Positions 431 through 4,822 of a stretch of 6,231 nt of DNA are shown piece after piece. The notes beneath the pieces are model-generated. The model did not search any database, was not told the origin of the DNA, and worked only from the letters and a program-made list of their open reading frames with translations. How positions within the stretch are numbered: position 1 is the first letter of the stretch; the number at the start of each line of letters is the position of its first letter. Source of the stretch: a virus (Duplodnaviria > Heunggongvirae > Uroviricota > Caudoviricetes); IMG/VR virus record IMGVR_UViG_2648501230_000014; one strand, 5' to 3'. Made by a program: the position numbers and the translations under genes.

Positions 431-710
431 ATATAGCATCAATCCAAGTAAAAATGCGCTTTCATTTCACATTAACTTACAGCCATTGGTATACGATTAG
501 GTATACGCACAAAAACTGAATTAAACAAAATCATTAAAAATCAAAGCAATACAATATTTATTCAAACTCCGCCAGCCCAATCATGATTGGACGGTGTAAG
601 GACAACACCAACAAAAACAGGAAGTTAGCAGTCTCAGCAGGACACCGACCAGACGGTGAGGAGACAAAAAAGGATACGCAAAGGAGCCGCGGCTCTCAAG
701 TGTGAAAGAA

Positions 711-736
711 GCCCGCAAATTGCGGGCTTTTTTATT
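711..736 (+). terminator. Rho-independent terminator
   Basis: GCCCGCAA-A-TTGCGGGC (8-bp GC-rich stem, 711-727) followed by TTTTTTATT. Sits immediately upstream of the 789 ORF, insulating it from upstream transcription. Confidence 0.7.
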
Positions 737-788
737 GATCAGTCAACAATAAACAGTAACCGAATGAGAATTTAATAAGGATATTCAT

Positions 789-1820
789 ATGGAAGCTACT
801 GTGGATTCGATTGATTTTCTGATCCGTAGTGAAGATGATTTTCTAAACTTTCTGGAAGAAATGAAAGCCCGAGAGGGGCTTGATTCTAAAGAGTTTATTT
901 TCCCTAACGTAAAGTTTGCAGGCTGGCCATCCTTAGACATAAATGTAAAAGGAGAGCGGTATCATTCATCAATTACATCAGCAATGTTGTTTGGTATGTC
1001 AATGCTCAACGAGGAGATACAGCGGGCGTTTGCAACCATACGATACGGATCGCAGAATCTTCAACGCTTGACTAATGAAGACAAGCAACGACTTGATATA
1101 AATTTTAAAATTAGCGAAGGTTCTAGTGATGCGGAAGGCACCACTGACAAGATCATCAACGCAGTAACTGATTTTTTGCGAGATACTATGTCTGGACTGA
1201 ACGGCTGGCAGAAAATGCTTGTTATAATCACAATGGTTGGCGCGGCCAGCACATGTGGTTATCACTACATTTCAGAAAATGCCGTAACAGAAAGACATGC
1301 AACTGATCGGCAGGTTGAAATTGCAAAAACCACATCCGATGGCATAAACAAAGCCATAGAAGCAACATTAGATTATAAAATCTATGGGAAATCAGCGATT
1401 AGCGATAAAGTTACTAGTCACGGACAAGCAGGTAAAAGTGCTTTAGTGAAGCAATTAGCTGCTGATCCTACTGTCGAAACCGTGACTTTAGGAAATGAGA
1501 AACTAACACGACAAGACCTAAATACCTACAACAGCCGACAATCTGTAGATAGAGAACGTAAAGAACGAACTGATATATTTTCCATCAAAGGTGTAACCAG
1601 AACAGGGCCAACAAATCAGGATATTAATATTAACGTTGTTAGGGTCTCTAATGACGAATGCTTCACAATCAAAGCTTCAGCTGATGTTATCACCCAAGAT
1701 GAGTTGACAGCTATTGTTGACGCTTTGTCAAACAACTCTCATATTAAAATCAGTTACTTAGAGGTAATTGAAAAGGGTGCTGTTTCTATAGGTCAGTTCA
1801 ACACTATTGTTTCAGAATAA
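789..1820 (+). CDS. Hypothetical protein (343 aa), first gene of a cargo operon; possible single-pass membrane protein
   Basis: Long ORF starting at the first ATG after an in-frame stop; AAGGA RBS at 777-781 with 7-nt spacer. Central hydrophobic stretch WQKMLVIITMVGAASTCGYHYI (residues 140-161). No catalytic motif I can assign. AT-rich relative to the tail genes. Confidence 0.8.
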   Translation: MEATVDSIDFLIRSEDDFLNFLEEMKAREGLDSKEFIFPNVKFAGWPSLDINVKGERYHSSITSAMLFGMSMLNEEIQRAFATIRYGSQNLQRLTNEDKQRLDINFKISEGSSDAEGTTDKIINAVTDFLRDTMSGLNGWQKMLVIITMVGAASTCGYHYISENAVTERHATDRQVEIAKTTSDGINKAIEATLDYKIYGKSAISDKVTSHGQAGKSALVKQLAADPTVETVTLGNEKLTRQDLNTYNSRQSVDRERKERTDIFSIKGVTRTGPTNQDININVVRVSNDECFTIKASADVITQDELTAIVDALSNNSHIKISYLEVIEKGAVSIGQFNTIVSE

Positions 1821-1871
1821 TCACTTAACCCCATTTATGTCGGTTGAGGTTATAAGTCACGGAGACCAGAT

Positions 1872-2216
1872 ATGTCCTTAAAGTATGCACATGAAAAATT
1901 TCATACTGCAGTACTTACTCTTGCGGGCCATGGAAGTATTCAAGAACGCTTGATTAATTCGTATGTTTTTAGCCTTGGGCATCTTAAAACAGCCGATGAT
2001 ATTCCAAATGCCTTACAAAGCAGGTTCGATGAATTATGTAAGGAACTGACTAAGTTTGATGCCACTGGCGATGAGGGGCGAGTTCAAGCAACAGTATCAA
2101 AACTTAACGATTTCGAGATCAATAAACTGATCGAAGATATTGTCAGTCTTAACGATGATATTTGCATGAAATTGGCTCTGACGGATGAGACTTACCAAGA
2201 CATACACCAAAGTTAA
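1872..2216 (+). CDS. Hypothetical protein (114 aa), second gene of the cargo operon
   Basis: GGAGA RBS at 1861-1865 with 6-nt spacer before ATG 1872. Lies 51 bp downstream of the 343-aa ORF on the same strand, followed by a hairpin at 2244-2266. Acidic, predicted helical, no recognisable motif. Confidence 0.75.
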   Translation: MSLKYAHEKFHTAVLTLAGHGSIQERLINSYVFSLGHLKTADDIPNALQSRFDELCKELTKFDATGDEGRVQATVSKLNDFEINKLIEDIVSLNDDICMKLALTDETYQDIHQS

Positions 2217-2300: not shown

Positions 2301-2513
2301 CTATTTATGATGTAATCCGGACATCAGTTCATGGACAAGATTATCTCTTTCATTGTGTTGCAACCGTAAATGCATAGCAAAAAGGTGAGCACTATCCTCA
2401 TTCCTCTTCAAGCCATGCTGTTCAAGATACCCGAAAAAACGGCTTCTCTTATCCGCTATTTCCTGAGTCTGACGTGCAACATTTACCAAATTTTCTAGCG
2501 TTTTTCTTGGCAT
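2301..2513 (-). CDS. Hypothetical small protein (70 aa)
   Basis: Strong AGGAGG Shine-Dalgarno (complement of 2522-2527) 8 nt upstream of ATG (complement of 2511-2513). Basic, predicted helical. Lies downstream of the invertase on the same strand, where e14 of K-12 carries mcrA. Confidence 0.65.
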   Translation of the reverse strand: MPRKTLENLVNVARQTQEIADKRSRFFGYLEQHGLKRNEDSAHLFAMHLRLQHNERDNLVHELMSGLHHK

Positions 2514-2711: not shown

Positions 2712-3266
2712 TTATTTATCTCCTGCCGGAAACCTCTGATACAAAGTCGATACGCCAACATCATAGATAATCGCAACTTTCTGGCGCGGAACTCCTGATG
2801 CAATTAATCGTCCGGCTTGTGCCCATTGTTCTGGTGTAAGTTTGGGACGACGTCCACCAATTCGTCCCTGTGCGCGAGCAGCTTCCAGTCCAGCTTTTGT
2901 TCGTTCAACAATCAGTTCTCGTTCCATTTCAGCCAGGGCCCCCATCACATGAAAGAAAAAGCGCCCCATTGGGGTACTGGTATCAATTGAATCCGTCAGA
3001 CTACGAAAGTTGATGCCTCGTTCGCGCAACTCCTCCACCAGCACGACAAGATGCCGCATACTGCGCCCCAGTCGGTCCAGTTTCCAGACCACCAGCGTAT
3101 CGCCTGCCGATAATGTCCTGAGCAGTTTTTTCAGTCCCGGCCTTTCGGACTTTGTACCGCTTATCTTGTCTTCAAAAATCAGCTCGCATCCTGCACAGTT
3201 CAGCGCATTACGTTGTAGATCTGTGTTCTGGTCATTTGTTGACACACGTACATAGCCAATAAGCAT
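2712..3266 (-). CDS. pin: Site-specific DNA invertase, serine recombinase of the Pin/Gin/Cin/Hin family
   Basis: 184-aa product MLIGYVRVSTNDQNTDLQRN...WKLDRLGRS...GINFRSLTDSIDTS.PMGRFFFHVMGALAEMERELI.ERT is an unmistakable match to Gin/Pin invertases (catalytic Ser in YVRVSTNDQ, C-terminal HTH). Start set at the ATG (3266..3264) preceded by GGGAGA, not at the longer ORF-track start at 3302. Stop TAA at 2714..2712. Confidence 0.93.
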   Translation of the reverse strand: MLIGYVRVSTNDQNTDLQRNALNCAGCELIFEDKISGTKSERPGLKKLLRTLSAGDTLVVWKLDRLGRSMRHLVVLVEELRERGINFRSLTDSIDTSTPMGRFFFHVMGALAEMERELIVERTKAGLEAARAQGRIGGRRPKLTPEQWAQAGRLIASGVPRQKVAIIYDVGVSTLYQRFPAGDK

Positions 3267-3292: not shown

Positions 3293-3805
3293 ATGATGCC
3301 ATTTGCTCGTTATTTCTGCATTTTCATAAACGTTGGTTTGGGAGAAGGTTCGGCATTACCCGTTGGTGTGCCTGTTCCGTGGCCTTCCGCCACTCCGCCA
3401 ACGGGGTGGCTAAAATGTAACGGAGCAGTATTTTCTTCTGAAAAGTACCCAAATCTGGCAAAGGCTTACCCAACATTAAAATTACCAGATTTACGCGGTG
3501 AATTTATTCGTGGCTGGGATGATGGGCGCGGGATTGACTCTGGTCGTAACTTATTATCTGCACAGAATGATGCAATTCAGAATATTGTTGGTTCTTTTGG
3601 GCGTACCCAGCTTTTTAGAGACGTACTTAGTTCAGGGCCATTTAGTCAACATGGGCAAGTATTATCTACAGGTCTAAAGGAAGCCGAAATTATTGAGGGT
3701 TATGGCGCTTATAACTGGACATTCGACGCATCTCGCTCAGTTCGCACAGCATCTGAAACCCGCTCCCGTAACATCGCCTTTAATTATATTGTGAGGGCTG
3801 CATGA
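3293..3805 (+). CDS. Alternative tail-fibre C-terminal variable cassette (promoterless, OFF orientation; stfE-like fragment)
   Basis: Translation contains the tail-fibre C-terminal signature ...GWLKCNGAVFSSEKYPNLAKAYPTLKLPDLRGEFIRGWDDGRGIDSGRNLLSAQNDAIQNI... The reading frame passes through the crossover site (NVGLGEG). The functional part begins at about 3335; the ATG at 3293 is probably fortuitous. Confidence 0.7.
   Translation: MMPFARYFCIFINVGLGEGSALPVGVPVPWPSATPPTGWLKCNGAVFSSEKYPNLAKAYPTLKLPDLRGEFIRGWDDGRGIDSGRNLLSAQNDAIQNIVGSFGRTQLFRDVLSSGPFSQHGQVLSTGLKEAEIIEGYGAYNWTFDASRSVRTASETRSRNIAFNYIVRAA
3321..3346. promoter_or_regulatory. Invertase crossover site (pix/gix/hix-like), pin-proximal
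   Basis: TTTTCATAAACGTTGGTTTGGGAGAA; reverse complement TTCTCCCAAACC-AA-CGTTTATGAAAA follows the 12-2-12 hix/gix layout (compare hixL TTCTTGAAAACC-AA-GGTTTTTGATAA as recalled). It is an inverted repeat of the site at 5266-5291. Confidence 0.8.
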
Positions 3806-4407
3806 TAAGTAAAGCTGTATTAAATAATGAACTCATCGCCACAAAGGCCGGAGACATTACCGTTTATAATTATGATGGTGAAACACGGGAATATATTTCC
3901 ACATCAACTGAATATCTTGCTGTGGGTGTTGGTATCCCGGCATGTTCCTGTTTAGATGCTCCTGGCTCATATAAAGCTGGTTATGCAATTTGCCGTTCTG
4001 CAGATTTTAACTCATGGGAATATGTGCCAGACCATCGCGGTGAAATCGTCTATAGCACCGAAACAGGAGAATCAAAAGAAATCACAGTTCCGGGTGATTA
4101 CCCTGAAAATACAACCACTATCGCCCCGTTAACGTCATACGATAAATGGGATGGTGAGAAATGGGTGACCGATACTGAGGCACAGCATAACGCCGCAGTA
4201 GACGCGGCAGAAGTACGGCGCCAGTCACTGATTGATGCTGCTATGGCTTCCATTAGTCTGATTCAGCTGAAATTGCAGGCCGGGCGGAAGCTGACGCAGG
4301 CAGAAACAACCCGGCTTAACGCTGTGCTGGATTACATTGACGCGGTGACTGCAACAGATACCAGCACCGCGCCGGATGTCATCTGGCCTGAACTACCGGA
4401 GGCGTAG
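3802..4407 (+). CDS. tfa: Tail-fibre assembly protein (Tfa family), alternative copy
   Basis: 201 aa; start overlaps the upstream stop (ATGA). Lambda-Tfa-like motifs: VPDHRGEIVY, YDKWDGEKWVTDTEAQ, C-terminal VTATDTSTAPDVIWPELPEA. Confidence 0.85.
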   Translation: MISKAVLNNELIATKAGDITVYNYDGETREYISTSTEYLAVGVGIPACSCLDAPGSYKAGYAICRSADFNSWEYVPDHRGEIVYSTETGESKEITVPGDYPENTTTIAPLTSYDKWDGEKWVTDTEAQHNAAVDAAEVRRQSLIDAAMASISLIQLKLQAGRKLTQAETTRLNAVLDYIDAVTATDTSTAPDVIWPELPEA

Positions 4408-4822
4408 GCCATTCAATATCTGGAGCACTGGAGGTATCAACCAGTTCCAGTGCGTCCAGATAATCCAGCCATAAATTATATTGTTCCAGCTCGTAACCTT
4501 TCAGACGACCAATAGCAGCTTTGCCAGGCCACTGATGGGTATTGATGTAGGTATTGACTTCTGAAACCAAAGATATCTTTTTCATTTCAGCCGCCAGCAT
4601 CTCATCCTCTTTTGAAGGCGGCGGGGAATTAATCCATATTGGCCGTCCTGAACTGTCAGCGCCAATTTCTTTCCCTTCTGGATGCAGCCCAAGAAATTGC
4701 TCATATGTTTCTCTGGTAATTTCAATAACATCATCAGGAAGCGTTCCCGCATCCTCATATTCTGGAAACAATTCTTGCAGATAAAAACTTTTACTTGCGG
4801 GTGAAAAGAATACTGAGTTCAT
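4379..4822 (-). CDS. tfa: Tail-fibre assembly protein (Tfa family), currently expressed copy
   Basis: 147 aa; ATG (4822..4820) lies 2 nt after the tail-fibre stop. C-terminal Tfa signature LWLDYLDALELVDTSSAPDIEWPTPP. Its 3' end overlaps the convergent tfa by 29 bp. Confidence 0.85.
   Translation of the reverse strand: MNSVFFSPASKSFYLQELFPEYEDAGTLPDDVIEITRETYEQFLGLHPEGKEIGADSSGRPIWINSPPPSKEDEMLAAEMKKISLVSEVNTYINTHQWPGKAAIGRLKGYELEQYNLWLDYLDALELVDTSSAPDIEWPTPPVVQAR

Follow-up and report, generated by a model that had tools for sequence, protein, structure and literature searches.

We analyzed a 6,231-nucleotide stretch of a Caudoviricetes genome (IMG/VR virus record IMGVR_UViG_2648501230_000014; hereafter the window) for the cargo genes located next to its pin-type invertase gene, above all A343, the gene of a 343-residue protein. 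The original prediction, made from the sequence alone, had described positions 789-2216 as an AT-rich, terminator-insulated operon of two uncharacterized genes at the pin-proximal position of an e14-like prophage, and as a candidate for a novel anti-phage system. Both open reading frames (ORFs) lie on the plus strand exactly as predicted, at 789-1820 (343 residues) and 1872-2216 (114 residues), and the AT-richness is borne out by a G+C content of 0.37-0.42 over 750-2550 as compared with 0.49-0.61 in the pin and tail genes. The slot is pin-proximal as well, but the gene abutting pin is a third, small ORF (C70) on the opposite strand rather than the operon itself. The cargo genes and the invertase gene bounding them are the following:

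789-1820, plus strand: A343, 343 residues, WP_021530618.1, a phrog_6191 member and candidate phage-exclusion protein (ORF list, RefSeq, profile search)
1872-2216, plus strand: B114, a 114-residue acidic orphan protein, WP_000054185.1, a clade-specific add-on (ORF list, RefSeq)
2301-2513, minus strand: C70, a 70-residue basic orphan ORF, WP_001137529.1, located 3' of pin on the pin strand (ORF list, RefSeq)
2712-3266, minus strand: pinE-type serine invertase bounding the cargo slot, 184 residues in RefSeq, with the ORF reaching 3302 (Pfam Resolvase and HTH_7; RefSeq annotation in locus L002)

A343 is a real gene because it has hundreds of homologues. It matches the phrog_6191 hidden Markov model with an E-value of 6.8e-38, aligning residues 7-340 with positions 5-331 of the 338-position profile, and the same profile is matched by all 123 members of a diverse homologue set (best E-value 8.5e-139). 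A word-indexed search returned 76 homologue clusters from Enterobacterales at 36-82% identity, all labelled “hypothetical”, and a second search found further members, likewise unnamed, in Burkholderia and Paraburkholderia. An exhaustive profile search yielded 831 representative clusters for the family at E ≤ 1e-3, a number that drops to 481 at E ≤ 1e-10; most of the proteins have 320-350 residues. RefSeq gives the accession WP_021530618.1 to the 100%-identical gene in two other loci (L001 and L002). The absence of a placeable signature in A343 and B114 was confirmed, with nothing above threshold for either protein in Pfam, NCBIfam, or PADLOC. Neither did the 123 homologues of A343 show any consistent match in these three databases, only scattered single noise hits, which for PADLOC-DB v2 had E-values of 1e-4 or weaker. 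As judged by these profile comparisons, phrog_6191 is a large unnamed family of prophage cargo without homology to known systems. Within E. coli, the family is sparse and patchy: the stretch from 561 or 577 to 2700 is found at an identity of at least 99% in 46 of 5426 complete genomes, including that of the enteroaggregative strain 042, and a cI-adjacent paralogue occurs in 18 of the 5426.

The homologues reside without a partner gene in at least seven prophage slots, and no neighbouring gene recurs across the contexts examined:

phi458, the PhiR12 phages, and Yersinia prophages: homologue following cI directly and preceding N, at a gap of 25-99 nt and on the same strand as cI, which is the position of rexAB in lambda
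Mangrovibacter (81% identity) and Citrobacter (47%): homologue abutting pin, with no intervening gene
Serratia marcescens: homologue flanked by icd and an integrase gene
Enterobacter: homologue flanked by a host gene on one side and by a prophage's tail-fibre end on the other
Klebsiella oxytoca: homologue within a siphovirus tail module
Burkholderia pseudomallei: homologue at the accessory end of a prophage
Cronobacter (82%): homologue at the same attachment (att) junction, with varying upstream elements

The family is found in siphovirus immunity regions and in myoviruses alike. Such a distribution fits a self-sufficient accessory gene that moves among cargo slots, several of which are classical sites of exclusion functions.

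The original prediction had also taken the pin-proximal position to be a known slot for defence cargo, and the sister prophages sharing the same pin, tail-fibre, and ymfQ genes agree with it. Their cargo in this slot varies, including McrA beside an icd fragment as in e14, a LEM-3-like GIY-YIG nuclease (in one strain with retron Ec67 adjoining), and a KAP P-loop NTPase. The pin-proximal slot is a defence hotspot. Furthermore, Table S10 of the DefensePredictor study lists the cluster WP_021530618.1 as predicted novel defence (DeWeirdt, Mahoney, and Laub, Science 2026; PMC13092281), and this accession is the RefSeq protein of A343 itself. The representative of the cluster, WP_001272876.1 with 348 residues, has a mean log-odds score of 6.86 against a cutoff of 4, and the HHblits and Foldseek columns for known defence proteins are empty (PMC13092281). 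The cluster is neither among the 94 tested units nor among DS-1 to DS-45, its accessions being absent from Tables S6-S8; family motifs of phrog_6191 were found in none of the sequences listed in the supplement, and B114 and C70 in none of the entries listed (PMC13092281). Searches by accession, phrog_6191, carrier phage, and hotspot returned no paper describing the A343 family, a negative that does not extend to the contents of the phi458 paper. A343 is a good candidate for a defence gene because its relatives are located after cI in three lambdoid lineages and because an independent machine-learning prediction points to it. The anti-phage candidacy that had been proposed for the A343/B114 pair is credible for A343 and is not supported for the pair.

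We modeled the A343 protein with AlphaFold2. With an alignment of 31 sequences, the model had a predicted local distance difference test (pLDDT) score of 62; with 123 diverse sequences, the pLDDT rose to 88, at a predicted template modelling (pTM) score of 0.77. The model and the family alignment suggest the following parts:

810-1193, plus strand: N-terminal alpha/beta domain, residues ~8-135 (motifs GWPxLxINVKG, NLQRLTxEDK, and EGSS, in this order)
1203-1271, plus strand: hydrophobic helix, residues ~139-161, a predicted membrane anchor (hydropathy, profile matches)
Between the hydrophobic helix and the helical hairpin, plus strand: low-confidence linker (AlphaFold2 model)
1314-1463, plus strand: helical hairpin, residues 176-225 (secondary structure of the AlphaFold2 model)
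Between the helical hairpin and the OB fold, plus strand: small beta unit (AlphaFold2 model)
1551-1808, plus strand: C-terminal OB-fold domain, residues 255-340, more variable (AlphaFold2 model, structural matches)

Conservation across the family is highest in the N-terminal domain and at the start of the helix, and the C-terminal half is more variable. G55, D103, G111, and S112 are among the conserved positions; position 137 is methionine in 94% of the family and leucine in the window copy. The structure libraries searched gave no fold match to the N-terminal domain. At the C-terminus, the model shows an OB fold, whose barrel of five strands has a helix between strands 3 and 4 and which matches OB proteins structurally; its top neighbours include the periplasmic or secreted proteins SilF, the B subunits of AB5 toxins, and YgiW. 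The modeled helix spans residues 139-154 inside a hydrophobic stretch of about 19-21 residues. The Kyte-Doolittle peak over 19 residues falls at the same alignment position in all homologues, with a median of 1.76 and a value of at least 1.6 in 72% of them. When the A2 profile was compared with the PDB, the only marginal matches were transmembrane (TM) anchor segments, those of MotB (E-value 8e-4), PBP5, and Tom20. A343 has no N-terminal signal peptide, which favours an orientation with the N-terminus inside. By hydropathy, A343 may associate with the membrane.

We propose that A343 would be produced in the lysogen and act by itself as a phage-exclusion protein. The conserved N-terminal domain and the hydrophobic helix would form a common core that anchors the protein at the inner membrane, and the variable helical hairpin and OB fold may recognize a component of the incoming phage, either nucleic acid or an ejection or tail protein. 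The outcome could be a block of genome entry or an abortive response at the membrane level; we prefer neither. Whether A343 alone confers phage exclusion or defence is, in our estimate, an evenly balanced question, and several observations weigh against it. The helix of the window copy scores only 1.41 on the Kyte-Doolittle scale. The charges flanking the helix, 2.2 lysine and arginine residues on the N-terminal and 2.8 on the C-terminal side, leave the topology undecided, and the pTM of 0.77 suggests that the two halves pack together, a poor fit to domains lying across a membrane. An OB fold alone says nothing about function. The DefensePredictor entry is a prediction only, from a study in which 45% of the tested units were validated (PMC13092281), and its score may draw partly on genomic context. 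No experiment ties any phrog_6191 member to phage resistance. A343 and B114 remain linked in two variants with 87% DNA identity, which could reflect a local functional link. Finally, slots of this kind also hold non-defence cargo, as illustrated by P22, which has gtrABC at the equivalent position between the tail-fibre end and the att site.

The P22 example leads directly to an alternative in which A343 is non-defence lysogenic-conversion cargo, with a role in envelope or stress physiology, in host colonization, or in the control of prophage maintenance or induction. The slot between the tail-fibre genes and attP classically holds O-antigen conversion genes, the nearest structures to the OB domain include periplasmic or secreted ones, SilF, the B subunits of AB5 toxins, and YgiW among them, and A343 has no catalytic or known defence motif. 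Furthermore, a role in prophage maintenance or induction would suit a gene co-transcribed with cI. However, the family recurs in exclusion-function slots directly after cI, the sister cargoes are defence genes, and the defence classifier places the A343 cluster well above its cutoff. We therefore consider non-defence cargo unlikely.

The gap between A343 and B114 is 51 nt without an evident hairpin, and a Shine-Dalgarno sequence precedes each gene; on this layout, the two are probably co-transcribed. C70 is convergent with B114, and the hairpin at 2244-2266 is common to both. Neither B114 nor C70 has a match in Pfam, NCBIfam, PADLOC, or, by sequence, in the PDB. Among 5.8 billion proteins, just six are close relatives of B114, and deposited phage genomes contain none; no homologue of C70 was found outside this cassette. 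The maximal hydropathy of B114 is 0.85, with no TM segment. DNA homology of the window to the Mangrovibacter (L004) and Cronobacter (L028) loci extends from about 560 to 1822, the stop codon of A343, and the homology to Mangrovibacter restarts at 2725, at pin. Therefore, the region 1823-2724, comprising B114, the hairpin, C70, and the region upstream of C70, is an insertion or deletion relative to the nearest orthologous loci. By this alignment, B114 and C70 form a separate module of about 0.9 kb that is missing from the loci of the 81-82%-identical A343 orthologues.

These data bear on a second alternative, that, as the original prediction of a two-gene system implied, A343 and B114 work as one two-component system; B114 might then regulate A343, restrain it in the manner of an antitoxin, or lend it specificity. 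Besides the close, co-stranded arrangement, it can draw on the variant locus L027 (87% DNA identity), in which B114 still follows A343 despite a changed downstream context, with C70 truncated and then followed by an SRAP gene. Between L027 and the window, the ratio of nonsynonymous to synonymous substitution rates (dN/dS) is 0.15 for B114 and 0.07 for the C-terminus of A343, and the former value shows B114 to be a real gene under purifying selection. B114 accompanies A343 in each of the 46 E. coli genomes that have the latter, but this pairing is uninformative because the copies are at least 99% identical and represent one near-clonal cassette; L027 is the only genuinely diverged variant of it. 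L026, which could be taken for a B114 locus without A343, was rejected as such by tblastn and DNA alignment, which showed the complete cassette at 99.2% identity, disrupted by frameshifts from the assembly. Outside one narrow E. coli clade, B114 is absent from all A343 homologues of 82% down to 26% identity, and neither the Mangrovibacter and Cronobacter orthologues nor the distant homologues have an equivalent small downstream gene. The conserved pairing thus fails, the breakpoint at the A343 stop codon and the scarcity of B114 relatives speak against a joint system as well, and we hold a two-component system to be quite improbable. A type II toxin-antitoxin pair was rejected for the same reason, as the A343 family is found without B114 in every lineage outside that clade. 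By sequence comparison, B114 is a local add-on, and A343 does without it elsewhere.

Two observations on the surroundings of A343-family genes are recorded here in their own right. An SRAP (YedK-like) gene adjoins the family gene in two unrelated contexts, downstream in the E. coli-like variant L027 (896-1276) and upstream in Burkholderia prophages (L035-L038, 5114-5818); this adjacency could be a coincidence or a weak tie to single-stranded DNA and abasic-site biology. In Cronobacter (L028-L031), an unrelated 343-residue protein is encoded at 8157-9188, about 1.1 kb downstream of the A343 orthologue. It has several hydrophobic segments and a coiled-coil-like middle and might be additional cargo.

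We compared the A343 family with known exclusion and defence systems. Homology was rejected for lambda RexA and RexB (hhalign probabilities of 0.2% and 0.25%), for P22 SieA and SieB (0.3% and 2.6%), and for the AbiZ-like DS-34B (0.1%). The closest functional analogies are RexAB, the abortive-infection and exclusion system that lambda transcribes together with cI, the small membrane superinfection-exclusion (Sie) proteins, and DS-34. The phi458, PhiR12_1, and Yersinia homologues take the place of rexAB, after cI, co-oriented, and before N, whereas the window copy is located at the att/pin end. Both A343 and RexAB are expected to be cargo expressed in the lysogen with a membrane component, but RexAB consists of a sensor and an effector with four TM segments, whereas A343 is one protein whose neighbour B114 lacks a hydrophobic segment. 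With SieA and SieB, A343 would share the character of a single, prophage-expressed, insulated cargo protein with a hydrophobic anchor, encoded near tail or injection genes, sieA of P22 directly following the injection genes. In contrast to them, A343 is about twice as large and has the conserved 135-residue N-terminal domain and the C-terminal OB fold. HK97 gp15 and T4 Imm are further membrane proteins of superinfection exclusion. DS-34, composed of cI and an AbiZ-like membrane protein, was experimentally validated as anti-phage in 2026 (PMC13092281); it resembles the cI-adjacent homologues in position and shows that this slot yields single-effector defences, but DS-34B differs in its DUF6161/AbiZ-like region and its broader TM block. 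McrA of e14 occupies the same genomic slot in homologous prophages, but it is an HNH type IV restriction enzyme encoded on the pin strand, whereas A343 has no nuclease motif and reads towards pin. SNIPE, a nuclease bound to the membrane, cleaves the DNA of phages while it is being injected (Nature 2026; PMC13190303). Likened by description, it is a possible working analogy for a membrane-tethered protein whose fold is of a nucleic-acid-binding type, as a precedent for defence constitutively located in the membrane at the site of genome entry, although A343 has no detectable nuclease domain.

It is very improbable that A343 serves the phage's own life cycle, for instance as an accessory of the tail, of lysis, or of DNA injection, even though it lies beside tail-fibre genes here and in a tail module in Klebsiella and one PhiR12 relative is labelled “T2SS GspM containing protein” (type II secretion system, T2SS), because it follows a terminator of its own and is read convergently to the tail operon, is missing in most of the closely related prophages, where other cargo takes its place, and belongs to a family found in a siphovirus immunity region and in myoviruses, and because the GspM label was rejected, with no Pfam T2SSM match in the 123 members and with an OB rather than a GspM-like fold at the C-terminus.

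The remaining features of the window place the cassette within its prophage:

561-579, no strand assigned: degenerate copy of the 3' end of ssrA (transfer-messenger RNA, tmRNA), the att core and satellite/prophage junction (aligned with the ssrA 3' end in L001 and with the satellite end in L041)
580-737, plus strand: ssrA trailer and rho-independent terminator (hairpin 708-733 and T-run), carried by the att site (RNAfold dG -19.3, inverted repeat)
743-771, plus strand: candidate for a weak sigma-70-like promoter (TCAACA-17-GAGAAT) with the Shine-Dalgarno sequence AAGGA behind it (8 of 12 consensus positions in a relaxed scan)
2244-2266, no strand assigned: hairpin of 9-10 bp between the convergent B114 and C70, terminator-like on both strands (hairpin scan)
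3293-4822, both strands: invertible tail-fibre segment adjoining pin, with two Caudo_TAP genes (Pfam)

In both E. coli contexts examined, the cassette directly follows the 3' end of ssrA and lies at one end of a complete prophage that has a Mu-type tail. Since this is the ssrA-proximal end of the prophage, the cassette is placed between the tail-fibre/pin module and the att site. The e14 likeness had thus been rightly drawn for the pin/tail-fibre/ymfQ module, whereas the full element is a Mu-type-tail prophage beside ssrA and not at icd. All E. coli matches to the cassette begin at 561-577. The terminator segment at 580-737 is directly 3' of ssrA in L001 and L002, and its hairpin at 708-733 has 13 bp and is followed by the T-run. 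It insulates A343 from transcription entering upstream. The predicted terminator insulation is therefore present in the form of the two hairpins at 708-733 and 2244-2266, but the upstream one is the ssrA trailer and terminator carried by the att site and not a dedicated insulator. The segment 600-737 is about 90% identical in phages LLS and Ayreon, and more than 4000 E. coli genomes match part of a 600-2700 query at 80-90% identity. In most carrier genomes, A343 would be the first gene past the highly transcribed ssrA, and read-through might add to its expression. The promoter candidate at 743-771 is predicted from a consensus match.

Beyond pin, the segment 3293-4822 has a plus-strand C-terminal fragment of a tail-collar gene and tfa facing a minus-strand tfa and tail-fibre C-terminus. 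E. coli loci that are otherwise near-identical have this segment in differing orientations and with differing content, for which reason most matches span only 55-75% of the window. The rest of the window also encodes a Mu gp48/YmfQ baseplate protein (Pfam), and no tmRNA or other RNA gene was found anywhere in the window. A 2,637-bp record entered as a circular plasmid (NZ_CP148395.1; L042, 1-2637) consists of exactly pinE, C70, B114, and A343; it is probably a repeat-bounded assembly fragment, an excised circle being the alternative.

Positions 1 to about 580 are the right end of a P4-family satellite, with the 3' end of a primase gene at 2-76, a terminator at 84-101, and two direct repeats of 121 nt at 123-243 and 303-423, spaced by 180 and carrying TGTTCACC-type inverted motifs. 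The repeats at 123-423 presumably resemble the crr replication region of P4. Because the satellite ends in the copy of the ssrA 3' end at 561-579, satellite and prophage appear to be arranged in tandem; for the placement of the satellite at ssrA, we assume the gene order known from K-12. The exact satellite/prophage junction of the window was found in none of the complete E. coli genomes of the collection.

Taken as a whole, the locus would be the slot in which a temperate phage with a Mu-type tail keeps its lysogenic-conversion cargo, at its att-proximal end, filled by two separate modules: the first (561-1822) would comprise the att core, the terminator, and A343, and the second (1823-2724) B114 and C70.

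The family had been flagged computationally before, as one of thousands of such predictions; its size, the replacement of rexAB in lambdoid phages, and the unmatched N-terminal domain add to its interest. We further consider the broader possibility that phrog_6191 represents a widespread, hitherto unrecognized class of anti-phage proteins, each made of a single polypeptide, which replaces RexAB after cI in lambdoid phages and travels between prophage slots. Its members would combine a conserved and new effector domain at the N-terminus with a membrane anchor and with a rapidly evolving OB sensor that recognizes the DNA or ejection proteins of incoming phages at the membrane. This proposal is tentative, and we regard it as doubtful in its full extent.

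If A343 protects its host, it would represent a new defence family, with hundreds of diverged members in Enterobacterales, Burkholderia, Pseudomonas, and other bacteria, that annotation tools have missed. If A343 is not protective, phrog_6191 nonetheless stands as a large family of prophage cargo that lacks annotation and should be named. The mechanism of Rex has been debated for decades, and a second, simpler occupant of the rexAB slot would perhaps be easier to dissect than Rex. Because nothing in the structure libraries searched matches the N-terminal domain, A343 might act by a new effector mechanism. The presence of A343 in the enteroaggregative strain 042 and in clinical and animal isolates means that it could affect the host range of therapeutic phages.

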